Assembly: GCA_963804955.1 (NCBI GenBank)
Contig: CAWDSQ010000020.1
Location: 224,001-288,000, forward strand
Source of the DNA: an uncultured delta proteobacterium
GTDB taxonomy: Bacteria > Desulfobacterota > WTBG01 > CAIYCZ01 > CAIRTM01
DNA length: 64,000 nucleotides
Direction: 5' to 3'
Shown: one piece after another, positions 42,940 through 62,554 of the stretch
Numbering within the stretch: position 1 is the stretch's first letter
How the letters are laid out: every line of letters starts with the position of its first letter
Position numbers and translations under genes: made by a program
Notes under the pieces: generated by a model
Seen by the model: only the letters and a program-made list of their open reading frames with translations
What the model was told of the DNA's origin: nothing
Database searches by the model: none

Positions 42940-45900
42940 CTACCTCTCCCGCTTCACGATCTTAATCTTCGGCGCGTGGCGGTGATATTCCTGAAGGCTG
43001 CACACCTCCATCTGGCTGAAAGTGCTGAGGCTCTCAAGGCCCTGAATGGCGGCGCGCAGGCCGTCGAGCGTTGTCGTAATCGGTATGCCGCGCAGCACGG
43101 CATGGGCCCTGTATCTTTACTTCGTCAAACTTGGGGCTGGCGCCGGTTGAGGGCGTATTTATGATCCAGCTGACATTCTTTTCTTCAACCAGATCGATAA
43201 CATTGGGTCTGCCATCGGACACGCGGAACATGGCATTACTGTTGACGCCATTATCGCGCAGCACGGTGCTGGTCCCCTGCGTGGCATAGATGCTGAATCC
43301 GAGCTGCTGAAGCTGTTTGACAAGCGGCACAATCGACTGCTTGTCGGAATCGCGGACGCTGACAAAAACATTTCCCGTACCAGGCAGAGCATTGCCGGCT
43401 GCAATCTGGCTTTTAAGAAATGCCATGCCGTGGGATGAATCAATGCCCATAACCTCGCCGGTTGATTTCATCTCGGGCGAGAGCAGCACGTCGATACCCG
43501 GAAATTTCACAAACGGGAAGACTGCTTCTTTAACCGAATAATACCTGGGCACAACTTCTTTGGTGAATCCCATGTCTTTGAGCGTATTGCCGACCATGAC
43601 AAGGGCTGCAAGCTTTGCCAGAGGTACGCCGATGGTTTTGCTCACAAAGGGCACGGTGCGCGATGCCCGGGGATTTACTTCAAGCACATACACAACGTCG
43701 TCTTTCACTGCATACTGCACGTTCATAAGGCCCATTACATTGAGCTCTTTTGCCATCTTGAAAGTATAGTCGCGAATAGTATTTTTTGTTTGTTCAGTAA
43801 GATGCGGCGCAGGGATGATGCAGGCGCTGTCGCCGGAGTGAACACCGGCAAGTTCCACATGCTCCATGATAGCGCCAAGCAACGATGTTTCGCCGTCTGA
43901 AATGCAGTCGACATCGACCTCAACGGCGTTTTCAAGATAATCATCAATGAGCACAGGCCGCTTATCCGACACCTGCACAGCCTCGGCCATATACTGCCGC
44001 AGGCCATCCATATCATACACAATCACCATGGCTCTGCCGCCAAGAACAAAAGAGGGGCGCAGCAGCACAGGAAAACCAATACGCTCTGCTATTGTTTCAG
44101 CCTCGGCAAGGCTTCGTGCAATTCCGTTAACAGGCTGTTTGATATTTAAGCGTGTGGCAAGCTTCTGGAAAAAGTCACGGTCTTCTGCCGCCTCGATGCT
44201 GGCGGGTTTGGTGCCGATGATATTGACGCCGTTTTTCTCAAGATCCTTTGCAAGGTTGAGCGGTGTCTGGCCGCCGAACTGCACGATAGCGCCCCAGCAT
44301 TGCTCACGCTGATAAATATGGAGTATGTCTTCAAGCGTAAGCGGCTCAAAATACAGCTTATCGCTGGTATCATAATCGGTAGAAACGGTTTCCGGGTTGC
44401 AGTTGACCATGATGGTCTCAAAGCCCGCATCGCGCAGGGCAAATGAGGCATGGACGCAGCAATAGTCAAATTCAATGCCCTGACCGATACGGTTGGGCCC
44501 GCTGCCAAGGATCATTACTTTTCTGCGATCAGAGGGCATGCTTTCGTCAAGTCCGCCATAGGTCGAGTAGAAATAAGGCGTATAGGCCTTAAACTCAGCT
44601 GCGCAGGTATCAACAATTCCATATACCGGCAGCAGGCGCATTTCATAACGCGCCGCGCGTACAGCATCTTCAGTAGTCTCTAAAAGAAAGGCTATCTGCC
44701 GGTCGGAATAACCCATTTCCTTGATCTGCTCAAACAGGGGCCTGTCCTTTTTTAATTTCTCAAGATTCCCTGCCGACTGTATCTCCTGCTCAAAACACAC
44801 CAGCTCCTCGATTTGCCGCAGAAACCACGGGTCGATGCCGGTACGGCGATGTACGGTTTCAATATTCCAGCCGCGTTTAAATGCTGCCCGGATATAGAAC
44901 AGGCGGTTTGCCGTGGGCCGCACAAGGGCATCATTCAGTGCGTCGTGCGGCAGTGACTCGAAGTGCCCGTCTTTACCATCAGCGCCGAAGCCTGACCTGC
45001 CAAGCTCAAGTGAACGAAGGGCCTTCTGAAATGACTGCTTGAAGGTCTTGCCGATGCCCATGGCCTCGCCTACGGATTTCATCTGCGTGCCGAGAGTATC
45101 ATCTGCAGCGGCGAATTTCTCAAATGCAAAACGAGGTATCTTGGTTACCACATAGTCGATAGTCGGTTCGAAGCAGGCCGGTGTTTCGCGCGTGATGTCA
45201 TTGAGTATTTCATCAAGCGTGTAGCCGATGGCGAGCTTTGCAGCTATCTTTGCAATGGGAAAGCCAGTGGCTTTTGAGGCGAGTGCAGAAGAGCGCGACA
45301 CGCGCGGGTTCATCTCGATGATGATCAAGCGGCCATTTTGGGGATTCACGGCCCACTGGACATTTGAACCGCCGGTCTCGACGCCGATCTCCCGGAGCAC
45401 GTCAAGAGACTTGTCGCGCATGATCTGATACTCGCGGTCGGTAAGGGTCTGGGCCGGCGCAACGGTTATGCTGTCGCCGGTATGAATGCCCATGGGATCC
45501 AAATTTTCAATCGAGCAGACGATGACGGCATTGTCGTTTTTGTCGCGCATCACCTCAAGCTCGTACTCTTTCCAGCCAAGCACCGACTCTTCTATCAGTA
45601 TCTCGGAGGTTGGGCTGTAGAAAAGACCACGAGCTGCAATCTCTTCAAACTCAGCATCATTATAGGCTATGCCCCCGCCCGTGCCTCCCATGGTAAAGCC
45701 AGGCCGAATGATGAGCGGATAGGAGCCGATCTCTTCGCGTACTTTTCGGGCCTCTTCAATAGTATGGGCTGAATCGCTTCGTGGAACATCAAGCCCGATC
45801 TTGAGCATGGCATTTTTGAATAGATTACGATCTTCGGCCTTTTCGATTGATTCGGCCTTTGCGCCGATCATTTCAACATTGTAGCGCTGCAGAATTTTTT

Positions 45901-46213
45901 TTCTGTGCAGCTCAAGGGCAAGATTTAAGGCCGTCTGTCCGCCAAGGGTCGGCAGCAGCGCATCAGGCCGCTCTCTTCGGATAATTTCTACCAGAATGTC
46001 GACATGCAGTGGTTCGATATAGGTACGGTCGGCAAATTCGGGATCGGTCATGATGGTGGCGGGATTGGAGTTTACCAGCACCACCTCAAAGCCTTCCTCT
46101 TTCAGTGCCTTGCAGGCCTGAACGCCCGAATAGTCGAATTCGCAGGCTTGACCGATGACAATCGGGCCGGAGCCGATAAGCATAATCTTCTTTATGTCTG
46201 TTCTTTTGGGCAT
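42940..46213 (-). CDS. carB: Carbamoyl-phosphate synthase large subunit (frameshift near C-terminus)
   Basis: [24 protein letters not shown], duplicated ATP-grasp halves, terminal SLQEYH in the shifted frame. Confidence 0.97.
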
Positions 46214-46219
46214 AATAAA

Positions 46220-46339
46220 TTGTTTAATTTGTTTTATTTGTTCAATTGGTTTTATTGGTTAAATACTTTAACCCAATCTCAAACAATCCAATCAGTTCAA
46301 CCAATGTAACTCATCAAACTAATTGAACCAATTCAACTA
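46220..46339. repeat. Inverted array of degenerate 9-bp tandem repeats
   Basis: Five T(T/G)GTTNNAT units followed by 5-8 reverse-complement units. Confidence 0.75.
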
Positions 46340-47732
46340 TGTTTTTCCATAGATTTCTTACCTTCAAAGCTCTCGATTGCAACCGGATAGGCACCGCTAA
46401 AGCAGGCCGTGCAGAAATCCTGCGGATTATCAAATGGCGACAGTATCCCTTCAAGGCTCAAATACCCGAGAGTATCCGCACCCATGAGCTGTCTGATTTC
46501 TTCAACTGTTCGGGTTGCAGCCACCAGCTCTTCAGAAGTCGGGAAGTCTATACCATAAAAGCAGGGATGCTTGATAGGGGGGCATGATATGCGCACATGC
46601 ACCTCTTTGGCTCCAGCATCGCGCAGCATTCTGATACGTTTTGCCATGGTATTGCCGCGCACGATGGAGTCATCCACAGCAATAATGCGCTTGCCCTTGA
46701 TCACATCCGGCAGCACTGCAAGCTTCATGTCGGCAGAGGACTTTCTCTGCTTATCCTCGGGCATGATGAATGTGCGGCCAACATAGTGGTTGCGTATAAA
46801 GCCGAAATCAAGCGGTATGCCGCTTGCACGTGAATACCCGAGTGCTGCAGAATTTCCGCTGTCGGGTATGGGTATGACCATATCGGCATCAACGGGATGC
46901 TCCTGCGCAAGACTGCCTGCCATAGGCCATGCGCACCTCATGGACATTTTTGCCAAAAACATGGCTATCCGGATGGGCAAAATATATGTGCTCAAAAATA
47001 CACTGGCCATAGTGCTCGCGCTTTTCGCAGAACATGTTGCTTGTGAGCCCGGATGAATTCACGGTGACTATCTCGCCGGGCAGCACGTCGCGCATATAGG
47101 TAGCACCGATCAGAGGCAGCGCGCAGGTCTCACTGGTGAATATAAAGGCTTCTCCCAGTTTACCGATTGACAGGGGCCTGAAGCCCAGCGGATCGCGTGC
47201 AGCCATAATGCTGTCTTTAGTCATTAAAAGAAAAGAAAAAGCGCCTTTGAGCTCACCAAGTGCGCGCTCAACCCTGCGGGGCCGGTTGCGGTACATGGGA
47301 TCGGCAAGAATGTGCACCAGAACCTCGCTGTCCGTACTGGTCTGAAAAATAGAACCTGATTCCTGATACATTCTGCGCAGCTTATTGGCATTGACCAGGT
47401 TACCGTTATGGGCGATAGCCCAGATTCCGTCTGCGCACTCGGCAACAAGGGGCTGCACATTCTGGATTCGCGTGGAACCGGTTGTGGAATAGCGCACATG
47501 GCCGATGCCAATTTTGCCGTTTAGATCACTGATCGGCTGCTTCGAGAAAACTTCCCCTACAAGACCAAGGCCCTTGGCCGACTTTATCTTCTCGCCATCG
47601 CTGACGACGATTCCCGCGCCCTCCTGCCCGCGGTGCTGCAAGAGCAAAAAGCCCCTGGTAGATAAGCGGGGCTGCTTCCGCAACACCGTAGACACCGAAA
47701 AGTCCGCAAAATTCCTTCAGTTCACTTCCCAT
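46333..47732 (-). CDS. purF: Amidophosphoribosyltransferase (frameshifted)
   Basis: Propeptide plus CGLFG, LQHRGQE, GHVRYST, HNGNL, VDDSIVRG, PCFYGID, CTACF. Confidence 0.95.
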
Positions 47733-47884
47733 ATATACCCGCTTTGCCGCTGCAAACACATGTCTGCAAACAGCATATAATTAAAAAATGCAATTTATAC
47801 TTTATACACACATAAAGGTCTGACTGTCCACGGGACAACCCTTTTGTGCAGCACCGCACAGATCAACCACTGTGTACAACCTGC

Positions 47885-49510
47885 TCAATTTTTGAGCGCA
47901 GCGGCAATAAATGCCGAAAACAGAGGATGAGGGTCATGCGGCCGCGATTTGAATTCAGGATGAAACTGGCAGCCAAGAAACCATGGATGATCAGGTATCT
48001 CGACAATCTCCACAAGTTCGGCATCGGGGCACATGCCGGTAATCCTCATGCCGTTTTTTTCAAGCACATCCAGAAAGGTATTATTGAATTCATAACGATG
48101 CCGGTGCCGCTCTGATATTTTTTTTATCTTGTAGGCTTCAAATGCCTTTGAAGGGCTTATAAGACCGCAGGGAAAGGCTCCGAGCCGCATGGTTGCTCCG
48201 TAGCAAAACTGCTCATCCCGCACCTGCTTTGTCTGTTTCTGATAATCAAACCACTCTTTCAAAAGAAAAATAATCGGGCTCGGGGTATCCTTATTGAACT
48301 CCGTGCTGTCGGCATCCTTAATGCCGCAGACATTACGGGCAAATTCAATGACGCACAGCTGCATGCCCAGACAGATGCCGAAATACGGCTTTTTCTGCTC
48401 ACGGGCATACCGGATGGCCTCAAGTTTTCCGGGAATGCCGCGGTCTCCAAAACCGCCGGGCACCAAAACGCCGTTTGCATCATCCAGTATGTCGGCAACA
48501 TTTTCTGCGGTTATGGTTTCGGAATCGACAAACTTCAGGTGAACGCGTGCACTGTTGGCAATGCCCCCGTGAATGAGAGCTTCGTTTAGACTTTTGTATG
48601 AATCTTCAAGGTCTATATACTTGCCCACAATGGCAATAGTTGTCGCATGATCAGGCTTTTTTAATTTTTGAAGCATCCCTTCCCACGACTCAAGATGCGG
48701 CGCACGGGTCCAGATATTGAGAAGCTCAATAATTTTTTCATCAAGTCCCTCCTGGTGAAGCAGCAGCGGCACCTCATAGATTGAATCGACATCTTTTGCC
48801 GTTATGACCGCGTCCCGTGAAAGATTGCAGAACAGAGCGATCTTATCCTTGATATCATGGGGCAGAAGCCGGTCAGACCGGCACAGCAGAATATCGGGCT
48901 GAATGCCTATCTGCAGCAATTCCTTTGTGCTGTGCTGCGTGGGCTTGGTCTTGAGCTGACCAGCAGCTCCTAAAAAGGGAACATAGGTCAAATGAACATA
49001 GAGAACGTTTTCCCGGCCTGCATCATTTTTAAACTGTCTGATAGCCTCAAGAAAAGGAAGTGATTCAATATCGCCAACCGTTCCGCCGATTTCGATTATG
49101 GCAATATCAACACCCTGGGCTACAAGCCATATTTTATCTTTGATCTCATTGGTGATATGGGGAATGACCTGAACGGTGGCGCCCAGATATTCACCCTTGC
49201 GCTCCTTGCCGATCACGCGCTCGTAAATCTGGCCTGTCGTATAATTGTTCTTTGAACCCATTCGGGCAAAAGTGAAGCGCTCGTAATGCCCCAGATCAAG
49301 GTCTGTTTCATTGCCCTCATCGGTTACAAAAACTTCACCATGCTGAAACGGATTCATGGTGCCGGGATCGACATTTATATAGGGATCAAACTTCAAAAAA
49401 GTGACTTTGAGCCCACGGGCCTCCAGCAGTGCCCCCATAGAAGCCGCGGCAATGCCTTTGCCCAGTGCCGATAGTACGCCGCCTGTTACAAAAATAAATT
49501 TTGGCTTCAT
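47885..49510 (-). CDS. pyrG: CTP synthase
   Basis: [42 protein letters not shown]. Confidence 0.98.
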
Positions 49511-49618: not shown

Positions 49619-51709
49619 TTAGTTGATGAACATCATTTCCGCATAGGTGGCAAGCGGCCACTGATCCCGGGGCAGCAGACCTTCGAGATCATCTACAGCT
49701 GCCCGCAGCTTTGCCATGGCAGGCAGTATCTTTACGGGATGGCCTGTTTTGACTGCGGCCTCCACAGCTTTGCAGCCCTTGAGGGTTGATTCAATCTGTT
49801 CCGTCACAGCTTTCAAAAGATCCCTGCTTTCATTGATCTTCACGGCTTTCATCATCTTTGAGATATCGGCAATTGCCGAAGCAAGCTCCCTCACATATGT
49901 TACCGCTGCCGGAACAATCATGGTGCGGGCAATGGTAACCGAGCAGTTCGCCTCAAGAATGATGGTCTTTTCATAATTTTCAAGCAGGGCGTTATATCGT
50001 GACTCAAGCTCCCTTTTTGTGAGCACGCCGTGCTTTTCAAACAGCTTCACGGTTGCTGGAGCAGCAAAAGCCTTCAGCGCTTCCGGCGTCGTCATAATGT
50101 TGGGCAGGCCGCGCCGGGCAGCTTCCCTGCGCCACTCGGCAGTATAATTGTCGCCATTGAAAAGAATGCGCTTATGCTTCTTAACTATTTTCTGCAGTAT
50201 GCCCTGCAGGGTTTCATTGAAATTCTTTCTGGCTTTGACTGCCGCTTCAAGCTCGCTGCACACTTCATTGATTGCATCGGCGACGATCGTATTGAGAACG
50301 GTATTGGCTGCAGAGCAGTTGTGGCTCGAGCCGACTGCGCGGAACTCGAACTTGTTGCCGGTGAAGGCAAAGGGCGAAGTGCGGTTACGGTCAGTTGCAT
50401 CACGCGGAAACTGCGGCAGAGAGGTAACCCCGATCTTAATCACGCCGCCGTTTTTCGAGCTTTTCGCCTTGCCTTTCTCTATCTGCTCGATCACATCATA
50501 GAGCTGATCTCCAAGAAAAATTGAAATGATGGCCGGAGGAGCCTCATTAGCCCCAAGCCGGTGATCATTGCCAGCCGAAGCCACAGCCGCCCGAAGAAGC
50601 GCTGCATTGGTGTCAACGGCTTTCATAAGAATGCAGATCATGGTGAGAAACTCTGCATTTGCATGGGGAGTATCACCCGGGGTCAGCCAGTTGCGGCCGG
50701 TCGGGTCGACAAGGGACCAGTTATTGTGCTTGCCCGAACCGTTTACTCCGGCAAAAGGCTTTTCATGCAGCAGGCATACCAAACCGTGCTCATCGGCAAC
50801 ATTGCGCAGCACTTCCATGGTCTGCATATTGTGATCAACAGCAATGCTCAGCTCCTCAAAGACCGGCGCAATTTCAAACTGCGCAGGGCACACTTCATTA
50901 TGCCGTGTCTTTGAAGGAATCCCCAGGCGCCAGAGCTCGCGGTCCAGATCTTCCATAAAAGCCATAATCCGCGGTTTGATGGGTCCGAAATAATGATCTT
51001 CCATCTGTTGATGCTTGGCAGGCTGGCGGCCAAACAAGGTACGGCCGGTCTGCATGAGATCAAGACGGCTCTCATAGAACTGCTTGTCAATCAGAAAGTA
51101 TTCCTGCTCCGGTCCCAGGGTCGGATAGGTGCGTGTGCCGCCATCGACATCCATGCCGAACAACTTTGCAAGCCTGCATACCTGCTTTGACAGCACGTCC
51201 ATCGAACGCAGCAACGGCGCTTTTTCATCAAGCGCTTCACCGCTATAGGAACAAAAAACCGTCGGGATACACAGGGTCGATCCTTTTGCACCGCGTTTTA
51301 TAAAAGCGGGGCTTGTGGGATCCCAAGCCGTATACCCCCGTGCTTCAAAGGTTGTACGAAGCCCCCCTGAAGGAAAACTTGAGGCGTCGGGTTCGCCCTG
51401 TATGAGCTCCTTGCCGGAAAAATGCATCACGCAGCCGCCTTCTCTATCCGGGTCGATAAAAGCATCATGCTTTTCTGCAGTTGTTCCCGTCAAAGGCTGA
51501 AACCAGTGTGTAAAATGGGTCGCCCCTTTTTCCATGGCCCAGGTCTTCATGGCATCGGCAACTTCATCGGCAATCTTCGGATCAAGTGATGCCCTGCGGA
51601 TTATTGTATCCATGATGGAATCATAGGCATGTACAGACAGATAGTTGCGCATGGTTTTTATGGTAAACACATCTTCTGCGAACAACTTGGTACAGTCAAA
51701 AGTATTCAT
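49619..51709 (-). CDS. glnA: Glutamine synthetase type III
   Basis: 696 aa; HWFQPLTG.TAEKHD, EPDASSFP.GG.R.TFEARGYT.WD, HEKPFAGVNGSGKH, RLGANEAPP, DRNRTSPFAFTGNKFEFR. Confidence 0.95.
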   Translation of the reverse strand: MNTFDCTKLFAEDVFTIKTMRNYLSVHAYDSIMDTIIRRASLDPKIADEVADAMKTWAMEKGATHFTHWFQPLTGTTAEKHDAFIDPDREGGCVMHFSGKELIQGEPDASSFPSGGLRTTFEARGYTAWDPTSPAFIKRGAKGSTLCIPTVFCSYSGEALDEKAPLLRSMDVLSKQVCRLAKLFGMDVDGGTRTYPTLGPEQEYFLIDKQFYESRLDLMQTGRTLFGRQPAKHQQMEDHYFGPIKPRIMAFMEDLDRELWRLGIPSKTRHNEVCPAQFEIAPVFEELSIAVDHNMQTMEVLRNVADEHGLVCLLHEKPFAGVNGSGKHNNWSLVDPTGRNWLTPGDTPHANAEFLTMICILMKAVDTNAALLRAAVASAGNDHRLGANEAPPAIISIFLGDQLYDVIEQIEKGKAKSSKNGGVIKIGVTSLPQFPRDATDRNRTSPFAFTGNKFEFRAVGSSHNCSAANTVLNTIVADAINEVCSELEAAVKARKNFNETLQGILQKIVKKHKRILFNGDNYTAEWRREAARRGLPNIMTTPEALKAFAAPATVKLFEKHGVLTKRELESRYNALLENYEKTIILEANCSVTIARTMIVPAAVTYVRELASAIADISKMMKAVKINESRDLLKAVTEQIESTLKGCKAVEAAVKTGHPVKILPAMAKLRAAVDDLEGLLPRDQWPLATYAEMMFIN

Positions 51710-52063: not shown

Positions 52064-53632
52064 ATGAAACAAAAAGAACCCGAAAGTATAAATACAATCA
52101 ACGCACGCTCCGCAAAACAGCTGGCAATTCTTGCAAAAATTTCACACGCCACATTTCATCAGAATAATATTTCAGCCCTGCTTGAAGATGCACTGGGCAT
52201 CATGGACACGGAAATGGGCATGTCGCGGGGTATACTTACTCTGCGCGTGCCGGATACCGACGTCTTAGTTATTGAAGCATCAAAAGGCCTTTCTGCAGAA
52301 GAAAAAAAACGCGGCAAGTACAAACTCGGAGAAGGCATAATAGGCCGTGTGGCGCAGACAAAAAAATCCGCTCTTATTGAAGACTTCACTACGGATCCCT
52401 ATTTTCTGAACAAGACAAGATCGCGCAAAAAAGATGTGCCCATGGCATTTCTTTGCGTGCCGGTCCTGCATAATCACGAGGTCATCGGAACCATCAGTAT
52501 CGACCGGCCCAAGGATGATCTGAACATTCTGCGCAGCGACCTGAACTTTCTGTCCCTGGTCGCAGACATTCTTGCAGAAGCCGTCGCCCAGATACGCGAG
52601 CAGGTTGCCGAGAGGGAAAACCTGATGGCGGAAAACCGTCAGCTGCGGCAACAGCTTGGAGAGCTCTACCAGCCCAACCATATCGTCGGACGCTGCAGCG
52701 TCATGCAGCAGATATATCTCCAGATCGCCCAGGTCGCCGACAGCACTGCCACCGTTCTTGTCCGGGGCGAGTCCGGCACGGGCAAGGAAATGATTGCCCG
52801 TGCGATTCACTTTTCAAGCTCCCGCCGCAACAATCCCTTTATTGCGGTCAACTGCGCGGCCCTTCCTGAAAACCTCATAGAAAGCGAGCTGTTCGGCCAT
52901 GAAAAAGGCTCGTTCACCGGCGCCATGCAGCAACGCAAGGGCCGCTTTGAGCTGGCAAATGGCGGCACTCTTTTTCTTGATGAAATCGGCGATATATCCC
53001 CGGCCGTACAGGTTCGCCTGCTGCGGGTACTGCAGGAAAAAATATTCGAACGCGTTGGCGGAACTGAAAGTATCAGGGTCAACATCCGCATTATCGCCGC
53101 TACTGCGGCAAACCTTGAGCAGGCCATTGAGAGCGGAAAATTCCGCGACGATCTTTTTTACCGGCTCAACGTGTTTCCCATCTACATGCCGCCGCTTCGC
53201 GAGCGCCGCTCCGATATCATTCTGCTTGCCGATCATTTTCTGCAAAAATACAATGAGGTCTACGGCAAGACCATAAAGCGGATATCAACCCCTGCCATCA
53301 ACATGATGATGGCCTATCACTGGCCGGGTAATGTCCGGGAGCTTGAAAACTGCATAGAACGCTCCATCCTCACCAGTTCAGACGACGTCATTCACAGCTA
53401 CTGCCTGCCGCCGTCGCTCCAGACATCCGATGAAACCAATACGGCCCTGCTGCCGGTTGATGGAGCACCGCTGACAACACTGGTGAGCTCCTACGAGCGG
53501 GAGCTGATTGTCGATGCGCTGAAAAAGCACCGCGGCAATGTTGCCTCCACGGCCCGCTATCTGCAGACCACGCAGCGCATTCTGCACTACCGCATTATCA
53601 GCCTTGGCATTGAAACAAAAAAATATAAATAA
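52064..53632 (+). CDS. NifA-like sigma54-dependent transcriptional activator (GAF-AAA+-HTH)
   Basis: GAF ([18 protein letters not shown]); [40 protein letters not shown]; Fis-type HTH. Confidence 0.92.
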
Positions 53633-53727
53633 TGCCCCCACAGGCGTTAAACTGCCAGCAGGCGGGTTGTCTGCCTCGCCCGCCCCTGCCTGAGCACTGT
53701 CATTGGCAATACGTACGGTGCGGCGGT

Positions 53728-56334
53728 TTATTCATCAGTCGCATGGGGGCTTATGCAGAGCAGCTTTTGCGTGTGAATATCGGACATGAGGCAGAGTTTT
53801 CTTGAGTCCGTATCAAAGACCCGGACAATATGTTCATATTGAGCGCTCTCCGGGAGCAGGCGCGCAAGCAGGTTTTCCATGCCTTCCATCCAGGCGGTGT
53901 TCAATGCAGCCTGTTCATTTTTGAGAAACAGCGCTGCATAAAAAATATCGGTTTCAACCAGGTCCTGAAAAAAATGGGTTCCAAAGGACAGCTCTGGCAT
54001 GAGCATCTCTCCCCTGTACTCAATCTCGACCATCACCGAAATATTATTAATCTCTGCAAACCTGACAGGCACGCCAAGGGCCGGTGTTGAAGTGCCCCAC
54101 CTGCCAGGCCCCATCAGCATGACATGCGTGCTGCTTTTATCTTCAATCTGTCGGTTAAGTCTGCCGATAAGCCGGGCAATAGTATATTTCTCAGAGATGG
54201 GAAGCCCGCTGTAGCCTTCCGGATCGACATAAATCACGCGGCTGATCGGCAGCATGACATTGCTGCCCATAAAATTGCCGTTCGATGAAAATAAAACTTT
54301 TTCAGGTTGTACGTTGTCCGGTATGCTTACGCGGGCCTGTATTCCCTTTGTCTGGAGTGGCCGGCACTGAACTAAATTTATATGAAACTGCCCACTGCGG
54401 TCGAAATTGACGGTAAATTCCGTATCAACCGGATAGCTATAGGTATCCTCAAGCTTTTTCAGCATATCACGCATGACCGCGGGAAACAGGCTATCGGCAA
54501 GAAGTGGATCAAATGTCAGCAGCCAGGCATCTTTATCAAAAATGCCGCGTTCCCGCAACCGCTCAGCCGCATGGCTGTCGCGCATGCCGAACCGCTCAAA
54601 ATCAATTTCCACAGCGCTCTCGACTACGGTATCGAGAGGAACTGTTTCAAGCTCGTTTTGCATAACATTCAGAACATCAACATAGCGCTGTGAGTATTTT
54701 CTGGCATCGCTCAGGCCTGCATGGGGCCGCAAAAGCGGGTTGTCAAGCGGTACTATCCGGGGATAATCATTTTCCACGCGGTTGACCGCTCGGGTCCCCA
54801 GCCCCAGCACCAGCCGCAGCATGCCGGCTTTAGGGTCCATATCCGGCTTCCAGACAAAAGCATTATAAGAAATGCCCACGCCCGCCAGATCAGGAAAGAA
54901 ATACCCGTTATGATGGGAGCCGGAAACCCGCTGCACAAGAAGCGCCATCTGCTCATCGTGCTCGGCAAGGCCGCGCTGCTTTCTATAGCTCAGGGCATCC
55001 TCGCCCATGGTGCTTGCAAACACCTGCCGTACATAATCTTTAAAGCGCTTGAAGCGCTGCTCGGGCGAGCCCTGATTGACGCAGAACAGGCTTTCGTATT
55101 TTCCGGCAAAAGCATTGCCGAAAGCATCCTCAAGAAGGCTGCTGGAGCGTATGATTATCGGCGCCTGGCCGAAATACTCGATCAGTTCCCAGAACTGGTC
55201 TTCAATTTCTTCAGGGAAAGACCCCTCAAGCATCTTGTCCTTTAAAATTCCGGCTGCCTTAAAATAGCCTTCAGGTGTCTTGTGCTCCATCAGCAGCGGC
55301 CACCAGCCGTTTGACACGATATAGGTATAAAAAACATCGGAGCCGATAAAAAAAGAATCATGGGGCTCAAGCAGAGCCCGCCAGTCGCGTGAGCTGTCCA
55401 GGTAGAAGAATTTTGCGGGCTATGAGCATGCCGGCTGCCTTTCCGCCGATATAACCGGTGCCGATAGTACGCTCTTTGATGGCAAGCAGATCCTGCAGCG
55501 ATGAGCGTTTTTTTCGCAAGATCCAGAATGCGCTGCTCACGGCCAATCATGACCGAGCACAGCAGCTCCAAAGCCTTATCCTTATCAGCGTCCTGGCTGT
55601 GGCGTCGCAGCAGATCCTGAACTTCCATAAACAGCCGGTCCCAGGAATCAAGATTTCTTCTTGTCTGAATAGTGCTTTTACCGGTTATATAAGAAGTGAG
55701 TTTCGCCAGATCCATGCTGCTGGTAACCGGTATGAAAGATTCGTCTGTTTTTTTATGCGGTAAAAACATGGTCGGCGAATACCTGCCGAGCACCTTCAGC
55801 GGATGCACATAGGTGTCGGTACCGGTATTGTAAACATCCATCAAAAGCTGGGTGGTTTCCCTGATGCGGGCTACGGTTTTGTAGGAATGCCGGCTGCGGA
55901 TGAGGCCGAAATAGGCAATGGTGTCAAGCTGAAAAAGATACGGGCAGGTGATCCTGAAAAAATTGCCGATCATCAAATCCGTTGCCCAGGCCGAAAGCAG
56001 ATCAGACAGGCAGTCAAAAACATAATAGGCGCCGATACCTTCGCGGGCAATTATGCCATGCACCTGCGTTGAAAACGACTCAAAGCCCGAGCCTGGCATC
56101 AAGTTCGTAGCGGGTTACTGCCGCCGTGGGTGCTACGAGTTCACGGTGCCGGGCGAACTGAACATAAATGAGTTTTTTCTTTTCTTCGATGGCCCGTTGA
56201 ACAAACGGCATTACAAAGCCGGCATAGTCATCGATATTGTCGACTTGCCAGACCACATTATCGCCAAGCCTGAGATGGTCGATAATGGCGTCAAGCCCTT
56301 TAATGCCGGTTGTCGGATAGAGTGATGCTTTCAT
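53728..56334 (-). CDS. PEP/pyruvate-binding (PPDK_N ATP-grasp) domain protein with N-terminal degenerate KaiC/RecA-like domain (frameshifts ~56090 and ~55500)
   Basis: TTGIKGLD..LRLGDNVVWQV; IGGKA; RSSSLLED.FGNAFAGKYES; GLGTRAV; PVDTEF; QCRPLQ; GPGRWG; SFGTHFFQDLVE. Confidence 0.8.
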
Positions 56335-56490
56335 CTATTCTGCTCATAAAAAGGTCTGAAGACAATACATAACTTATAAAATAGTTTAACTTTTAATTTT
56401 ATATTCATGTAATAACTTAATATTAAAACTTTAATTTCACATTACTTTCGTTCCTGTATCCATACTGTCACGCCACAGGCCAGACAGGGC

Positions 56491-57929
56491 CTATCCCTTC
56501 GCCGGCCTTGCCATAACAGCCTCATGAAGGCACTGAGCAGCCTGCCTGCCCTGCCAGATGGCGCGCACAACAAGCGATGGCCCTGTTACCGCATCGCCTG
56601 CGGCAAACACGCCAGGCACGGAACTCATATATCTGTCATCCACGGCAATGGTTCCGGAAGAGGAGAGCTGAACGCCAAGCTCATAAATCAATTTTCCATG
56701 AACTATGCCGGTAAATCCCATGGCAAGTATGACAAGATCGACATCAAGAGAAAAATCCGAGCCAGGCACTTCTTCAAATACCTGCCGTCCATTAATATCT
56801 TTCCATCCAACTCGTGTTGCGATTACCTTGGAAATTACTTCCACCATTTCCTTCGAAGCGCTTTGTCAAGACCGACCACTGAAGCTGGCAGCCTTCCTCG
56901 TGCGACGAGCTTTTTCTTACAATACGCGGCCAGTAGGGCCACTCAGGGTTCCACTGCTCGCTCCATTCACGCGGCATGGGCAGAAGTTCGAACTGATGAA
57001 CGTCGCGGGCACCCTGCCGGTTTGCCGTCCCGACGCAGTCGGAGCCTGTATCGCCTCCGCCGATCACAAGCACGGATTTGCCGCATGCGGTAATGCCGTT
57101 GCCTGCAGGAGCTTCACCCTCAACTGTCTGGTTGGAGTATGCAAGGAAATCCATAGCACAGTGGATCCCCGCAAGCTCACGGCCCGGCACCGAAAGATCG
57201 CGAGGAACTTCGGCGCCGCAGGTGATGAGAATGGCGTCAAAAGATCTTCGCAGATAGGCTGCTGAAATGTCTTCACCAACATGCACACCGGTTTCAAACT
57301 GGACTCCTTCGGCAGCCATCTGTTCAAGCCTGCGGTCGAGCACCCATTTTTCAAGCTTAAAACTGGGTATGCCGTAGCGCAAAAGGCCGCCGGGACTCTT
57401 CGATTTCTCCCAGACGACAACATCGTGGCCCAGACGCGCAAGCTGCTGAGCGGCAGCCAGTCCCGCAGGGCCTGAACCGACGATGGCAACGCGGCGGCCG
57501 GTTTTGAAGGGCGGTGGCGCCGGAAGCACCGCGTTTTCGGCAAAGCCGCGCTCAATAATTGCAAGTTCATTGAGCCGTATGGTCACGGGGCCTTCGTTGA
57601 TGGCAAGGGTGCAGGCTGCCTCACAGGGCGCCGGACATACACGCCCTGTAATTTCAGGAAAATTATTGGTCATTTCAAGGCGCTGCAGAGCATCTCGCCA
57701 CTGACCACGGTAGACAGAATCATTCCATTCGGGAATAAGGTTGTAGAGCGGGCATCCCATGGCATGACAAAACGGAACTCCGCAGTCTATGCACCGTGCG
57801 GCCTGCTGCTGCACCGCCTCGTCCGGCAGGCGCGTTGCGACTTCACTGTAGTCTTTAAGCCGTTCAGGCACCGGACGATACGGTGGTAGTTACGCGCGAA
57901 TACTCAAGAAAGCCTCTGATCTTTCCCAT
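56491..57929 (-). CDS. gltD: Glutamate synthase small subunit (frameshifted)
   Basis: [54 protein letters not shown] overlap with the gltB stop. Confidence 0.95.
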
Positions 57930-60900
57930 TACCTGAAAACCTCCTCGGTCATGACGACATGTTCAGAATCCCGGGTCTGCTGCTGCCTGATACGCTCCAG
58001 GGCTTTGCGGTAATCCATGGGCATGACCTTCACAAAATACGGCAGCAACTCAGCCCAGTCCTTTAAAATGCCTTCGGCATATACGCTGCCTGTATAGCCG
58101 GCATGCCGCTTGATCATGGTGTAGAGATAGGCAGCTTCCTGATCATCATCGATGGGACTCAGATCAACCATTTCAAGGTTGCAGCGGGTGTCGAACAGCT
58201 GATTGGTGTCAAGCACATAGGCTATGCCGCCGCTCATGCCAGCCGCGAAATTGATGCCGGTAGGGCCGAGGATGATAACACGGCCGCCGGTCATATACTC
58301 GCAACCATGATCACCCACACCTTCTACCACCGCAACGGCGCCGCTGTTGCGCACGGCAAAACGCTCGCCGGCCTGCCCATGTATAAAAACCTCACCGCCT
58401 GTTGCGCCGAACAGATTTACATTTCCCGCGATGATATTGTTCTGCGGCCGGAATGTAGAATTTTCAGGCGGATACACAATGATGCGGCCCCCTGAAAGGC
58501 CCTTTCCGAAATAATCGTTTGCATCCCCTTCAAGTTCAAAGGTGATGCCGGGGGCAAGAAAGGCCCCGAAACTCTGCCCTGCCGAACCGTTGAACTTTGC
58601 CCAGATAGTGTCATCCGGCAGTCCGGCTGAGCCATACCGTTTTGACACCTCATAGCTCAGCATCGCACCGGCTGTCCGGTTGCGGTTGCGAATGTCCATA
58701 AGAATTTGAACCGGCTGGCGCTCATCCAGCGCCTGCCGCGCCTTTTCAATGATGGCAAAATCAAGACACTGGGAGAAATCGTGCTGCTGGCTCCGGGTGC
58801 AGCGCAGGCTGCGTCCTGCGGCAAGCTCCGGCTGATGAAAAATGCCTGAAAAATCAAGGCCGCGGGTTTTCCAGTGCATCAAGGCATCATTAACATCCAG
58901 CATGTCGACGCGACCAACCATATCATCGACAGTGCGGAATCCCAAAAGCGACATAATTTCACGCGTGTCCTGAGCAACAAAGCGCATAAAATTCATCAGA
59001 TGCTCGGGTTTGCCCCTGAAGCGTCTGCGCAGCTCGGGGTCCTGCGAGGCAACGCCGACCGGACAGGCATCAAGATGGCATTTGCGCGCCATGATGCAGC
59101 CCATGGTCACCAGAACGATAGTGCCGAAGCCGAATTCTTCAGCTCCAAGAAGCGCACCGATGACCACGTCGCGGCCCGTTCGGAGCTGGCCGTCGACCTG
59201 CAGGCGTATCCTGTTGCGCAGCTTATTGAGCAGCAGTGTCTGCTGCGCCTCGGCAAGTCCTATTTCCCAGGGCATGCCGACATATTTGATGGATGAGATA
59301 GGCGATGCGCCCGTACCGCCGTCATGGCCGCTGATGAGAACCATATCGGCCTTGCCTTTGGCCACCCCGGCAGCTATGGTGCCGACTCCCGCTTCTGACA
59401 CAAGTTTAACAGACACGCGCGCCTGAGGATTGGCATTCTTCAGATCATAGATCAGCTGCGCAAGATCTTCGATGGAGTATATGTCATGATGCGGCGGCGG
59501 TGAAATGAGCATAACGCCTGGCGTTGCATGCCTGACTTTGGCTATACCTTCAGTTACCTTATGGCCCGGCAGCTGGCCGCCTTCACCCGGCTTGGCGCCC
59601 TGTGCCATTTTGATCTGAAGCTCGCGTGCATGGGCCAGATAATTGCTGGTTACGCCAAATCGCGCTGATGCAACCTGCTTTACGGCGCTCATGGACAGGT
59701 CGCCGTCGGCCCTTGGCTGATACCTGCTCTCATCTTCGCCGCCCTCACCTGAATTGCTCTGGCTGCCCAGGCGGTTCATGGCAATGGCTATTGTCTCATG
59801 GGCCTCCGGGCTGATGGAACCCAGAGACATGGCCGATGACACAAACCGTTTAACAATCGAGTCCACGGGCTCAACCTCATCAAGAGGTACGGGTGTGCCT
59901 TTTTTAAACTTGAAAAGGCCGCGCAGCGTGCATAGATTTTCAGCATGGTTGTTCACGCATGAGGCATATTTCTTATACAGGTCATACCGGCCATCCCTGA
60001 CAGACCACTGGATATTGGCGATTGATTCAGCGGTGAGCAGGTGTTTTTCAGAAAATTTTCGGAAGTGGTAGCTCCCCCCTGACGGCAGCGCTTCACGCTC
60101 CGGACTTTCATGCAGTGCAAAGGCTTCGCTATGGCGCTGCAGGGTTTCGCGGGCTATCTCCTCCAGCCCGATGCCACCCACGCGTGAAAAAGTGCCGGGG
60201 AAAAAGGTATCAACACATGCTTTGTTCAGGCCCACGGATTCAAACAGCTGTGCGCTTTTATAGCTGCGGATCGTGGAGATACCCATCTTGGACATAATTT
60301 TAAGGAGGCCTTTTTTAAGTGCTGTAATGTAGTTTTCGATAGCCTGCGGCATCGTCAAGCCCTGGGGCAGTTTATTATCGTTTTGCAGGGACGCAATAAT
60401 CTTATATGCCAGATACGGGCACACGGCGCTTGCGCCGAAACCCACGAGGGTTGCAAAGTGCATGACATCGCGCGCCTCGGCTGTTTCGATAACGAGGCCG
60501 GCAAGATGCCGTTTGCCCGCCCGCACAAGATGATGATGCACGGCAGAGGTTGCAAGCAGGGCCGGCACCGCCATCTGCTTGCAGTCGATCCAGCGATCGG
60601 AAAGGAGCACAAGTGAAGCGCCCTGGTCGATGGCAAGCTCAGCCCGAGAGCACATGGCTCTGATGGCGTCTGCCATGCCCTGCTTCCCCTCATCCACGGC
60701 AAACAGCATGGAAACTTCTTCAACTTTAAAATCAGGTATCTCGCAGTACCGCAGCTTCTCCATGTCCTCATTGGTGAGCACGGGATAGAGAAGCTTTATC
60801 TGGTGGCAGTGCCCGGGCGTTTCTGCCAGAAGGTTGCGCTCGCGGCCGGTGAATGCCATGACAGACATGACAAGATTTTCCCGGTAGGGGTCAATAGGCG

Positions 60901-62476
60901 GATTGGTAACCTGCGCGAAAAGCTGCTTGAAATATTTATACAGAAGCTGCGGCCGGTCGGAAAGCACGGCCAGAGCTTCGTCATTGCCCATGGAGCCGAC
61001 CGGCTCCTGGGAGGTTTCAACCATAGGGGTTAAAATTTTGTCAATTTCTTCAAGGGTATAGCCGAAAGCACGCTGCTGCGTAGCCAGCGACTTTTTCTCC
61101 TCTACCTGCACCATTCCCGGCACCTGAAAAAAACCTTTCAGCTCTATCTGATTCTGCTCCAGCCAGCGCCGGTAGGGTTTATGGCGGCATACCGATGCCT
61201 TGATCTCATTGTCCTTGATGACGCGCTTATGCACCGTATCGACAATGAGCATTTTGCCCGGCGCAAGCCGGCCTTTTTCAAGAACATCAGCCGGTTCAAC
61301 AGGCACAACCCCCACTTCTGAAGCCATAATAACCCTGCCCTGCCTGGTCACAATATAGCGGGCAGGGCGCAACCCGTTCCGGTCAACTATTGCCCCCACC
61401 TTAAACCCGTCAGTGAATGCCATTGCAGCCGGGCCGTCCCAGGGCTCCATAATGGCTGCATGATATTCATAAAAAGCCCGCTTGTCTGTACTCATATGAA
61501 TGGCCGGTCCGAAAGCCTCGGGAATCATCATCATCATGGCATGCTCCGGACTTCTGCCGCCGGCTACAAGCAGTTCATAGGTATTATCAAACATGGCTGA
61601 GTCACTGCCGCCCGGCATGATGATCGGGAAAAGCTTTGCTATATCATCGCCGAACACTGGCGATGCCAGTGTTTTTTCACGCGCCTTCATCTTGTTGATA
61701 TTGCCCCGAAGGGTATTGATCTCGCCGTTATGAGCCAGATACCTCAGGGGCTGGGCAAGGGGCCAGGATGGAAAGGTATTGGTGCTGTAGCGCTGATGTA
61801 CCACGGCAAATGCGCTGTCGAAATCACGCTCGGCAAAATCACAGTAAAACTGCTCGAGCCGGGGGGCGTCAAACATGCCCTTATACGTGATGGTACGGCA
61901 GGACAAAGACGGAATGTAGAATTCCTCCAGCGGCAGCTTAAGACGAGCAGCCTCCTGTTCAATGCATTTGCGCACTACATACAGCTTTCGCTCCAGATTA
62001 TCGCCAGCGAGTTCACCAAACTGAACAAAAAACTGCTTCATGTGGGGCATGGAGGCAAGGGCGATTTCGCCAAGGCAGTCCGGGCTCACGGGAACATCGC
62101 GCCATCCCAGCACAAGACCACCTTCCTGCTGCACAACAGATTCGACGGCAGCCAGCATTTTTTGCCTGGTATCAATGTTTTGAGACAGAAACAAAAAACC
62201 TGCGCCGTAGGAACCGGGATCCGGAAGGCTAAAGCCCAGAGCCTTTGCCGTTTTCCTGAAGAAGAAATGAGGAAGCTGAATGAGCATGCCTGCGCCATCG
62301 CCGGTTTTCAGATCGCCGCCGACCGCTCCACGATGTACGAGGTTCTTTAAAATCGTCAATCCGCCGGTAACGATATCATGCGCTGGTTCACCGTCCACAT
62401 TGACGATGAAGCCTACACCGCAGCTGTCATGTTCGAACTGCGGATCATAAAGCCCATGCTCCGAATCCTGGCCCAT
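57929..62476 (-). CDS. gltB: Glutamate synthase large subunit
   Basis: EHDSCGVGF, HQRYSTNT, QGAKPGEGGQLPG, CIMARKCHLDACP, GXGXG C-terminal domain; 1515 aa. Confidence 0.98.
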   Translation of the reverse strand: MGQDSEHGLYDPQFEHDSCGVGFIVNVDGEPAHDIVTGGLTILKNLVHRGAVGGDLKTGDGAGMLIQLPHFFFRKTAKALGFSLPDPGSYGAGFLFLSQNIDTRQKMLAAVESVVQQEGGLVLGWRDVPVSPDCLGEIALASMPHMKQFFVQFGELAGDNLERKLYVVRKCIEQEAARLKLPLEEFYIPSLSCRTITYKGMFDAPRLEQFYCDFAERDFDSAFAVVHQRYSTNTFPSWPLAQPLRYLAHNGEINTLRGNINKMKAREKTLASPVFGDDIAKLFPIIMPGGSDSAMFDNTYELLVAGGRSPEHAMMMMIPEAFGPAIHMSTDKRAFYEYHAAIMEPWDGPAAMAFTDGFKVGAIVDRNGLRPARYIVTRQGRVIMASEVGVVPVEPADVLEKGRLAPGKMLIVDTVHKRVIKDNEIKASVCRHKPYRRWLEQNQIELKGFFQVPGMVQVEEKKSLATQQRAFGYTLEEIDKILTPMVETSQEPVGSMGNDEALAVLSDRPQLLYKYFKQLFAQVTNPPIDPYRENLVMSVMAFTGRERNLLAETPGHCHQIKLLYPVLTNEDMEKLRYCEIPDFKVEEVSMLFAVDEGKQGMADAIRAMCSRAELAIDQGASLVLLSDRWIDCKQMAVPALLATSAVHHHLVRAGKRHLAGLVIETAEARDVMHFATLVGFGASAVCPYLAYKIIASLQNDNKLPQGLTMPQAIENYITALKKGLLKIMSKMGISTIRSYKSAQLFESVGLNKACVDTFFPGTFSRVGGIGLEEIARETLQRHSEAFALHESPEREALPSGGSYHFRKFSEKHLLTAESIANIQWSVRDGRYDLYKKYASCVNNHAENLCTLRGLFKFKKGTPVPLDEVEPVDSIVKRFVSSAMSLGSISPEAHETIAIAMNRLGSQSNSGEGGEDESRYQPRADGDLSMSAVKQVASARFGVTSNYLAHARELQIKMAQGAKPGEGGQLPGHKVTEGIAKVRHATPGVMLISPPPHHDIYSIEDLAQLIYDLKNANPQARVSVKLVSEAGVGTIAAGVAKGKADMVLISGHDGGTGASPISSIKYVGMPWEIGLAEAQQTLLLNKLRNRIRLQVDGQLRTGRDVVIGALLGAEEFGFGTIVLVTMGCIMARKCHLDACPVGVASQDPELRRRFRGKPEHLMNFMRFVAQDTREIMSLLGFRTVDDMVGRVDMLDVNDALMHWKTRGLDFSGIFHQPELAAGRSLRCTRSQQHDFSQCLDFAIIEKARQALDERQPVQILMDIRNRNRTAGAMLSYEVSKRYGSAGLPDDTIWAKFNGSAGQSFGAFLAPGITFELEGDANDYFGKGLSGGRIIVYPPENSTFRPQNNIIAGNVNLFGATGGEVFIHGQAGERFAVRNSGAVAVVEGVGDHGCEYMTGGRVIILGPTGINFAAGMSGGIAYVLDTNQLFDTRCNLEMVDLSPIDDDQEAAYLYTMIKRHAGYTGSVYAEGILKDWAELLPYFVKVMPMDYRKALERIRQQQTRDSEHVVMTEEVFR

Positions 62477-62538: not shown

Positions 62539-62554
62539 AGCAAAATAGATGCCA
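62539..62554 (-). promoter_or_regulatory. Sigma54 -24/-12 promoter for gltBD
   Basis: TGGCATCTATTTTGCT (canonical GG-N10-GC), 63 bp upstream of the gltB start. Confidence 0.7.

Follow-up and report, generated by a model that had tools for sequence, protein, structure and literature searches.

A PPDK_N protein with a KaiC-like N-terminal domain and its probable part in nitrogen assimilation in anaerobic bacteria

A gene that databases would label as a phosphoenolpyruvate (PEP) synthase lies directly downstream of the glutamate synthase genes in a 64,000-nucleotide stretch of DNA from an uncultured delta proteobacterium (here called the window; contig CAWDSQ010000020.1, positions 224,001 to 288,000, assembly GCA_963804955.1). 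The gene encodes a three-domain protein of ~870 amino acids, and its best explanation is that it belongs to a large uncharacterised branch of the PPDK_N proteins that forms part of the ammonium-assimilation gene set of anaerobes. Because members of this family adjoin ammonium-to-glutamate genes in many anaerobic bacteria, the family probably has a hitherto undescribed role in nitrogen assimilation. We class the protein as an enzyme of the dikinase superfamily with a new set of domains and probably a new acceptor, a function that we infer. How ammonium assimilation is controlled is textbook material for enterobacteria (PII, GlnD, GlnE, NtrBC), but little is known of it in the anaerobes that predominate in sediments, digesters, and guts. 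The protein is conserved to about the degree of a core enzyme and occurs in about one in six sampled genomes of its phylum, plus at least five other phyla. We found no description of the family in the literature.

Domain anatomy of the protein

The gene and its parts are placed in the window as follows; residues are numbered as in an intact orthologue of 867 amino acids (P0001, from locus L003), which was the reference for the domain, fold, and residue-numbering analyses.

53728..56334, minus strand: gene for the ~870-amino-acid three-domain protein, in four frame segments joined through three +1 insertions (open reading frames and tblastn)
55470..56334, minus strand: N-terminal KaiC/RecA-fold domain without P-loop, residues ~1-290 (Foldseek; 3' border approximate, helical linker included)
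54307..55469, minus strand: PPDK_N-type ATP-grasp domain, residues ~291-675 (PF01326, Foldseek; borders approximate)
53731..54306, minus strand: C-terminal domain of ~190 amino acids, residues ~676-867 (family alignment, AlphaFold2 model)
53974..53976, minus strand: codon of the invariant His786 in SFGTHFFQ (tblastn places residue 786 at 53976-53974)

The original prediction, made from the letters of the DNA, had read a start resembling KaiC/RecA, a dikinase ATP-grasp domain, and a short histidine-bearing C-terminus. This anatomy holds, and every motif quoted for it is present (TTGIKGLD...GDNVVWQV, IGGKA, RSSSLLED, GLGTRAV, QCRP, and SFGTHFFQ).

The central domain is the only one with a Pfam match: PF01326 is found with E 1.3e-44 on the 529-amino-acid piece of the window's gene and with E 7.8e-49 over residues 294-673 of P0001. 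An AlphaFold2 model built from 61 diverse family members (predicted local distance difference test [pLDDT] 87.9, predicted template modelling score [pTM] 0.83) was compared with known structures by Foldseek, and its ATP-grasp domain matched rifampin phosphotransferase (RPH) 5hv3 (E 5.7e-13, ~400 columns), HpeI 9goj, and PEP synthase 2ols. In an alignment with PEP synthase 8a8e, the RSSSxxED and QxRP motifs coincide, and several traits of the PPDK_N superfamily are present: the PF01326 domain, RSSxxxED, QxRP, and an acidic residue before QxRP. Residues G291/G293/G296/G297, R395-S398, E401, D402, K411, E638, Q655, and R657 are invariant in all 61 sequences. Judged by these motifs, the ATP-grasp domain looks functional. 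A search of PDB sequences returned weak ATP-grasp matches alone, plus GNAT matches (E 0.08-0.8) that we took as chance.

The same PPDK_N domain, with its conserved nucleotide-site motifs, is what the protein shares with PEP synthase (PpsA) and pyruvate phosphate dikinase (PPDK), and family members carry the former name in their sources. Among the best 120 of at least 8000 candidates from a word-indexed homologue search (all at E<=1e-3), every protein has PF01326 only, and the names include "phosphoenolpyruvate synthase," "PEP/pyruvate-binding domain-containing protein," and, once, "KaiC/GvpD/RAD55 family RecA-like ATPase." It is nevertheless extremely improbable that the protein is an ordinary PEP synthase or PPDK. 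The intact orthologue has no match to the PEP/pyruvate-binding TIM barrel (PF02896), as had been predicted, and its 867 residues are filled by the three other domains; nor does it match the PEP-utilizers swivel domain (PF00391) at E<=1. The best score to an NCBIfam PEP-synthase equivalog is 48.4 bits against a cut-off of 883 (cut-offs range from 598 to 1063), and scores to the RPH and PigC models are likewise far below their cut-offs (RPH 28 bits versus 999). Moreover, the window's genome has three canonical PEP-utilizers matches elsewhere, on contigs C7, C1, and C5, and the gene's context is one of nitrogen assimilation and not of gluconeogenesis. Databases mislabel this family as PEP synthase.

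The N-terminal domain has the fold of KaiC, RadA, and FlaH. With Foldseek, this part of the model matched KaiC 7s65_B (E 2.7e-8, 214 columns, root-mean-square deviation 4.0), FlaH 4yds (E 1e-7), and RecA 1xp8, the KaiC/RadA/FlaH-type matches covering ~215-230 columns, and in our alignment the acidic D107 falls at the Walker B position. Unlike those proteins, it has no Walker A P-loop (GxxxxGK[ST]). In its place stands G24-D25-N26-V-V-W29-Q-V, which holds no lysine and is invariant in 27/27 aligned N-terminal domains and in 61/61 full-length sequences; that this "GDNVVW" stretch occupies the Walker A position of KaiC is our reading of the alignment. The absence of an intact Walker A had been noted in the original prediction, and it would preclude conventional nucleotide binding. 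GDNVVWQV leads into the first strand, and an acidic loop (D32..D-D-Y37) comes after it; the invariant residues in the 27 sequences are G24, D25, N26, V28, W29, Q30, D107, H149, and R184. Neither P0001 nor a second intact orthologue, P0002, matches the Pfam KaiC model (PF06745) at E<=1. A complex prediction with three copies of the domain gave a score of 0.00 (mark 0.42) and returned no verdict.

The C-terminal domain is defined by conservation. Its invariants are GPGRWG, E769, and S782-x-G784-x-H786, and His786 is the only invariant histidine in the alignment of 27 C-terminal domains; it is retained in all 27 and in all 61 full-length sequences. Among 253 matches to the domain in 270 family proteins, the strict motif PGR...E...S-x-G-x-H occurs in 246, six more keep G-[ST]-H (252 in total), and one is a spurious partial match. 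The histidine on which the predicted chemistry depends is therefore conserved. When the domain was folded alone by AlphaFold2 (pLDDT 87.2), His786 opened a helix that follows a loop of low confidence, and in the full-length model it likewise begins a helix behind a flexible loop. Foldseek found nothing in the PDB at E<=1e-3, and an ESM Atlas search with the domain returned same-family fragments only.

The ATP-grasp and C-terminal domains occur together in every architecture that we examined and, judged by these sequences, are the conserved core of the family. The architectures are as follows:

~865 amino acids: the three-domain form
~600 amino acids: core only
~770 amino acids: core with another N-terminus
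~1050 amino acids: core with a Pol-beta-type nucleotidyltransferase tail
1460-1650 amino acids: module duplicated

Association with nitrogen-assimilation genes

The link of the family to nitrogen metabolism is strong. We compared 28 loci, taking a single genome for each species and flanks of up to 10 kb on either side of the gene, and identified neighbors by tblastn with the window's proteins, clustering of open reading frames, and Pfam. Genes for glutamate synthase (GOGAT), glutamate dehydrogenase (GDH), or glutamine synthetase (GS) are present in 23/28 loci, from at least six phyla and in many gene arrangements. A random gene would be expected near GOGAT, GDH, or GS in a 20-kb span a few percent of the time, by our estimate. 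Some of the loci are kin and so not independent: L013-L016 come from one genus, and L018-L021 are similar spirochaete loci. The enrichment of homologues beside nitrogen-assimilation genes, on which the original prediction had staked itself, is thus borne out. The arrangements are the following:

gltB and gltD abutting the gene, in three different orientations: L016, L022, L023, L026, L031, and L039, besides the window; 7 kb away in L019
GDH within 1.2 kb of the 3' end of the gene (12 loci): L018-L021, L024, L025, L028, L030, L032, L034, L037, and L038
Split GOGAT directly upstream (FAD-oxidase/Fe-S; two Glu_synthase/Fe-S proteins; GATase+GXGXG): L013-L015 and L017
Type I GS directly upstream: L040
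Type III GS nearby: L014-L016 and L022
NrpR adjacent: L025 and L027
GAF-HTH_8 regulator adjacent: L029

Of the five loci without GOGAT, GDH, or GS, two have a nitrogen-type regulator alone, and three (L033, L035, and L036) are contig ends or hold nothing identifiable, the open reading frames of L036 having been scanned in part. In 17/24 tabulated loci, the gap to the upstream gene is 4-230 nucleotides, or the two genes overlap.

Three sets of loci bear further observations. In the genome of L015 and in another genome of the window's genus (G004), a four-gene split GOGAT-like cluster stands directly upstream of the family gene in place of gltBD (L014:2234-9772, L015:2364-9852); its products include a GATase+GXGXG protein of 872 amino acids. 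A split GOGAT cluster in L017 (2234-9635) is flanked by two divergent copies of the family gene. The Spirochaetota loci L018-L021 (e.g., L018:8649-16696) carry a PurT-like ATP-grasp gene, the family gene, GDH, and then an NfnA/NfnB-like pair, which consists of a DHODB Fe-S/NAD-binding protein and a GltD-like protein; this string looks like an operon that would supply NADPH and make glutamate.

The gene's surroundings in the window are as follows:

57929..62476, minus strand: gltB, large subunit of GOGAT, 1515 amino acids (Pfam GATase_2, Glu_syn_central, Glu_synthase, GXGXG)
56491..57871, minus strand: gltD, small subunit of GOGAT, split by a frameshift (open reading frames 57871-56792 and 56847-56491; Fer4_20 and two Pyr_redox_2 halves)
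52064..53632, plus strand: NifA/NtrC-like GAF/sigma-54/HTH_8 activator without receiver domain (Pfam GAF, Sigma54_activat, AAA_lid_14, HTH_8)
49619..51709, minus strand: type III GS (Pfam GSIII_N, Gln-synt_C, Gln-synt_C-ter)
43034..49510, minus strand: carB, purF (split by a frameshift), and pyrG, completing the nitrogen cluster (Pfam)
62539..62554, minus strand: sigma-54-type promoter-like site TGGCATCTATTTTGCT, a one-mismatch match ~63 nucleotides upstream of the gltB start
51840-51825, minus strand: sigma-54-like site TGGCACCGTTCTTGTA, a one-mismatch match upstream of the type III GS gene

As the original prediction had it, the gene follows gltB and gltD on the same strand and converges at its 3' end with the activator, an order supported by Pfam and by the positions of the open reading frames; the same convergent partner is found in the same-genus loci L013-L016. 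The gap of 156 bp between gltD and the gene holds no terminator-like site (scan of 53400-56700, which overall was at chance level), and co-transcription with gltBD is plausible from this layout. The sigma-54-like site upstream of gltB may drive a transcript of gltB, gltD, and the gene. Over the whole window, 25 matches to the sigma-54 pattern were found where 51 are expected, which is not above chance, so that placement alone is suggestive. The sites before gltB and the type III GS gene fit control by the adjacent GAF/sigma-54 activator.

The N-terminal domain is shared with a second type of protein. In a sample of 401 genomes of the phylum, its profile also matches frames of mostly ~435-480 amino acids (E 1e-11 to 1e-24) in about 80 further genomes, and the ~435-amino-acid proteins that we fetched and scanned with Pfam consist of a KaiC-like domain, HTH_3, and Cupin_2. 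As a family, these regulators occur in roughly 80-90 of the 401 genomes. The window's genome has no such ~435-amino-acid regulator at E<=1e-10. The regulators resemble our protein in their signature, which reads GDNV(V/I)W, and in their neighborhoods of glutamate-synthase-like, GDH, or NtrC genes; they differ from it in that a helix-turn-helix (HTH) and a cupin replace the ATP-grasp and His domains. Common to the two types are 23 invariant columns, including GDNV-W, C130-P131, T138, H149, Q162, K180, and R184, and the regulators' domain has an extra insert of ~38 amino acids. One regulator (L075:6172-7539) matches PF06745 at E 1.5e-8. We found no published description of KaiC-like/HTH_3/Cupin_2 regulators, although no literature search was aimed at their domain names.

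Of 20 fetched stretches, 16 held a regulator:

L068:8310-9617, minus strand: KaiC-like/HTH_3/Cupin_2 regulator
L069:6558-7865, plus strand: the same
L075:6172-7539, plus strand: the same
L079:6891-8189, plus strand: the same
12 more loci among L068-L087: the same

In these 16 loci, the neighbors are a Glu_synthase-domain gene (8 loci, the regulator gene usually being divergent from it), NuoF/NuoE-like genes (7), an NtrC-type activator (5), a GAF-ANTAR protein (3), GDH (3), a GAF histidine kinase (3), and a member of the present family (3). L077 has a Glu_synthase-domain gene beside a match to the N-terminal profile, and no regulator was recognised in that stretch. In two loci (L072:9934-12234 and L074:10111-12396), a 766-amino-acid paralogue lacking the N-terminal domain lies between a Glu_synthase-like gene and GDH, beside a KaiC-like HTH regulator.

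Because the same domain heads two types of output at nitrogen-assimilation loci, we read it as a sensor or a scaffold/docking module. The role that the original prediction had suggested for it thereby gains support. A Rosetta-stone coupling, in which the regulators' N-terminal domain would work with dikinase paralogues lacking their own, has a weak hint in its favor: genomes with a ~770-amino-acid paralogue have a regulator in 12/21 cases versus roughly 77/380 of the others, in a hand tally of genomes that include kin and so are not independent. Most genomes with a regulator have no dikinase core.

Proposed phosphotransfer and its alternatives

We propose that the protein is an ATP-using dikinase that phosphorylates His786 and passes the phosphate to an acceptor at the glutamate node, with the GDNVVW domain sensing or docking; in our judgment this has about an even chance of being right. 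The ATP-grasp domain would bind ATP and hand a phosphoryl group to His786, which opens a helix in the swivelling-type C-terminal domain (ATP -> AMP + Pi + His~P), the reaction known for PEP synthase, RPH, and VadK. Since the PEP/pyruvate barrel is missing, the phosphate would go on to an acceptor other than pyruvate, the likeliest being GDH, GOGAT, or the protein's own N-terminal domain. The outcome would be ATP-dependent control of the 2-oxoglutarate/glutamate node, in which the P-loop-less KaiC-like domain would sense nitrogen status or provide docking. In the window, the gene would probably be transcribed together with gltB and gltD from a sigma-54 promoter.

Among described proteins, the nearest analogue is VadK (Rv1127c) of Mycobacterium tuberculosis. 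VadK is reported (PMC13400623) to be a PPDK derivative and histidine autokinase that interacts with enzymes of the metabolic pathway it is proposed to tune, a precedent for a barrel-less PPDK derivative acting in this way. Both proteins are of the PPDK_N type, both have lost the PEP/pyruvate barrel, and in both a histidine is the presumed phosphorylation site. As a truncated PPDK in that account, VadK should keep a canonical carrier domain, whereas our protein has an unrelated-looking C-terminal domain and an additional KaiC-like N-terminal domain; VadK acts on the methylcitrate cycle, and our protein, known from sequence alone, has nitrogen assimilation as its context.

RPH (PDB 5hv1/5hv3; PMC4844700) offers a second parallel. 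Of known structures it matches the ATP-grasp domain best, it has a similar length (~850-870 amino acids), and it follows the same three-domain logic, in which an ATP-grasp domain and a domain for the substrate or an accessory function are joined by a small His domain at the C-terminal end of the chain. The His domain of RPH is, however, of the canonical PEP-utilizers type and its middle domain binds rifampin, while the accessory domain of our protein is N-terminal and KaiC-like.

The original prediction had asked whether the protein has a His-swivel fold. VIA-align against 48,161 chains supports the class of fold: the list is dominated by swivelling beta/beta/alpha domains, and six of the best 26 chains (Z 4.2-5.1) are carrier-type domains from PPDK, pyruvate kinase, RPH, and Enzyme I. 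Among the swivelling domains are the phosphoryl-carrier domain of PPDK 2fm4 (Z 5.1, 111 residues), the C-terminal domain of pyruvate kinase, residues 386-510 of maize PPDK, residues 757-867 of RPH (just Z 4.5), and Enzyme I; the carrier domains of PPDK, RPH, and Enzyme I reach no more than Z 4.4-5.1. Homology to the canonical carrier is unsupported by profiles; the GGxTSH swivel domain of the PEP-utilizers type is absent, while an invariant G-T/S-H at a helix start is present. The modelled fold class is thus compatible with a His carrier, which would be either very divergent or analogous.

A rival view dispenses with the phosphohistidine relay. The C-terminal domain would be a catalytic swivelling beta/beta/alpha domain of the cyclase/hydrolase type, in which His786, E769, and R744 would make up the active or metal site, and the ATP-grasp domain would supply or regulate it directly. 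"Putative cyclase"/kynurenine-formamidase chains do occur in the VIA-align top 40 (8f9x, the top match, with Z 5.3; 8hmo, 5.1; 4co9, 5.0; 4j0n, 4.6; 5ibz, 4.0), profile similarity to PEP-utilizers was none, and the invariant polar residues of the domain outnumber those that a simple carrier would require. Yet the cyclase matches are as weak as the carrier matches, and only one histidine is invariant; the metal site of the cyclase family uses several. We consider this view highly unlikely. In all characterised PPDK_N enzymes, a histidine is the target of the ATP-grasp domain, as is established for the family and reported for RPH (PMC4844700).

A less improbable alternative, although still an unlikely one, is that the protein is a metabolic dikinase and no regulator. 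Through His~P, it would phosphorylate a small molecule of the glutamate node (2-oxoglutarate, glutamate, or an ammonia-derived compound), with the substrate site in the conserved pocket of either the GDNVVW domain or the C-terminal domain. 2-Oxoglutarate is a 2-oxo acid like pyruvate, and the characterised full-length relatives named by our searches all act on small molecules (PEP synthase, RPH, and PigC/RedH). The ~60% identity between matches with source names from different lineages is typical of an enzyme, the former nucleotide site of the N-terminal domain carries the invariant polar residues D25, N26, D107, H149, and R184, and the gene stands within biosynthetic operons, between Glu_synthase-like and GDH genes in L072 and L074 and between PurT-like and GDH genes in L018-L021. 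On the other side, we know of no pathway that needs such a phosphorylated product. The N-terminal domain also sits on DNA-binding regulators, which suits a sensor better than a catalytic site, and the ~600-amino-acid core-only form and the forms with another N-terminus keep the core, so that the N-terminal domain is not needed for core chemistry. The gene is also patchy within the window's family, f1, with strong full-length-type matches in 8/17 genomes (the window's included), unlike a core metabolic step.

Several observations weigh against a phosphorelay at the glutamate node in general. The acceptor candidates are several, and gene context singles out none of them; the neighbors vary (GDH, two GOGAT types, GS, PurT-like genes, and several kinds of regulator), and membership of a regulon fits them as well as a specific partner does. 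No sigma-54 site was found directly upstream of the gene in the window or in the 24 loci examined. The structural matches of the C-terminal domain are weak (Z<=5.3, where a Z under 8 may mean merely a common arrangement) and tied with cyclase/kynurenine-formamidase, RraA, and chaperonin apical domains. The hhalign comparison of the C-terminal alignment with a PEP-utilizers alignment, built from 18 proteins of related genomes, gave a probability of 0.13%, and the invariant R744, E769, and S782 could make up a separate catalytic site instead of a carrier. Lastly, the gene has three frameshifts in 2.6 kb versus two in the other ~14 kb of the cluster (rough binomial P ~0.03), and the first of them is covered by no contig, which bears on whether the gene is intact in this strain.

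A more ambitious version of the phosphorelay, which we put forward only tentatively, takes the GDNVVW domain as an unrecognised nitrogen sensor or docking module with two outputs: the HTH-cupin factor, and the dikinase, which would phosphorylate GDH, GOGAT, or its own KaiC-like domain by way of a new His carrier. This would be a post-translational layer in the control of ammonium assimilation, separate from, and coexisting with, PII/GlnD/GlnE. If the protein does work at the 2-oxoglutarate/glutamate node, as a regulator or an enzyme of ATP-driven phosphotransfer, a missing component would be added to nitrogen metabolism, and the dikinase superfamily would gain a new class of acceptor and a new carrier-like domain. 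The shared GDNVVW domain, which could be expressed alone or from the regulators, offers a handle for ligand and partner screens.

The gene in the window and the wider family

The window's copy of the gene is broken. Its open reading frames on the minus strand are 56334-56080 (84 amino acids), 56102-55290 (270 amino acids), and 55317-53728 (529 amino acids), and tblastn with the intact orthologues P0001 and P0002 adds a short stretch in a fourth segment (55519-55403), which encodes TIGTGYIGGKAAGMLIARKILL; the order of frames is -2, -3, -1, -2. The large piece is 85-86% identical to P0001 and P0002. DNA alignments with five same-genus orthologues resolve the breaks, which the original prediction had recognised, into exactly three single-base insertions, near 56089, 55502, and 55404:

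56087..56091, minus strand: frameshift 1, one extra base (position +/-2; frame -2 to -3 at residue ~83; five-orthologue alignment)
55500..55504, minus strand: frameshift 2, one extra base (orthologue alignment; a 151-nucleotide short-read contig from run X4 lacks the letter at 55502)
55402..55406, minus strand: frameshift 3, one extra base (orthologue alignment; a 153-nucleotide contig from run X1 lacks the letter at 55404 and differs from the window by one other letter)

Because same-genus copies are intact and short-read contigs lack two of the three extra bases, the frameshifts are probably assembly errors, and the organism probably makes the full protein. Three same-genus genomes have open frames of 868-879 amino acids with 84-86% identity, two of which read out as open reading frames of 867 and 874 amino acids. 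The contigs come from other samples, those of relatives (99% and ~97% identical to the window), and cover frameshifts 2 and 3 only; no public sequencing run contained the whole stretch that was compared, the best share of its words being 0.21.

The opposing view, that the insertions exist in the cell and leave a real pseudogene from which only the 84-amino-acid peptide could be made, is improbable. It can point to the excess of indels over the rest of the cluster, to the want of a read-level check for frameshift 1, and to a fourth same-genus assembly (G003, locus L016) with its own +1 insertion at a different site in the same gene. Against this, all three changes are +1 and together restore the frame, and, indels aside, the four aligned segments have no in-frame stops and are 77-93% identical to P0002, the closest intact orthologue. 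Two genes that such cells need, gltD and purF, are frameshifted as well. Both assemblies with a broken gene have few contigs and low completeness (36 contigs at 87%; 50 contigs at 79%), which would fit error-prone long-read assembly.

The frameshifts in gltD and purF (span 46333-47695) were confirmed by halves of Pfam domains, and the list of open reading frames has further overlapping same-strand pairs at 2305-3764, 8419-10012, and 39999-41353. Several split genes in one window suggest an error-prone assembly. The CTGCAG methylation motif was considered as a cause and dropped, since just one of the frameshift sites checked sits at CTGCAG.

The family is large. An exhaustive search yielded 3812 representative clusters at E<=1e-3, of which 896 reach E<=1e-30, and record titles place members in Thermodesulfobacteriota, Spirochaetota, Omnitrophota, Margulisiibacteriota, Bacillota, and Sedimentisphaerales. 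In the 401-genome phylum sample, a full-length orthologue occurs in 65 genomes (E<=1e-87, N-terminal profile) and some protein with the C-terminal domain in 100. We also considered whether the protein replaces GlnD/GlnE, with a complementary distribution, and rejected this: by hand tally of the 401-genome sample, PF08335 occurs in 31/65 genomes with the gene versus 208/336 without it, and many genomes with the gene had three PF08335 matches. The idea had looked promising in a set of 41 relatives, where all four genomes with a two-domain GlnE-like frame are without the gene.

Some relatives carry additional modules. Five proteins of ~1050-1077 amino acids (P0235, P0244, P0266, P0267, and P0270) and one of 1654 amino acids (P0183) have a C-terminal NTP_transf_2/Polbeta nucleotidyltransferase and a different N-terminus, which is GAF-like by eye and has no Pfam GAF match at E<=1e-3. 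A protein of 900 amino acids (P0225) joins PPDK_N to a complete alpha-L-rhamnosidase and may be a chimeric gene call or a misassembly. In P0008 and P0011-P0022 (1459-1513 amino acids; P0016 is named from Geobacter sp. OR-1), an ATP-grasp and C-terminal module lacking the N-terminal domain is followed by a complete three-domain copy.

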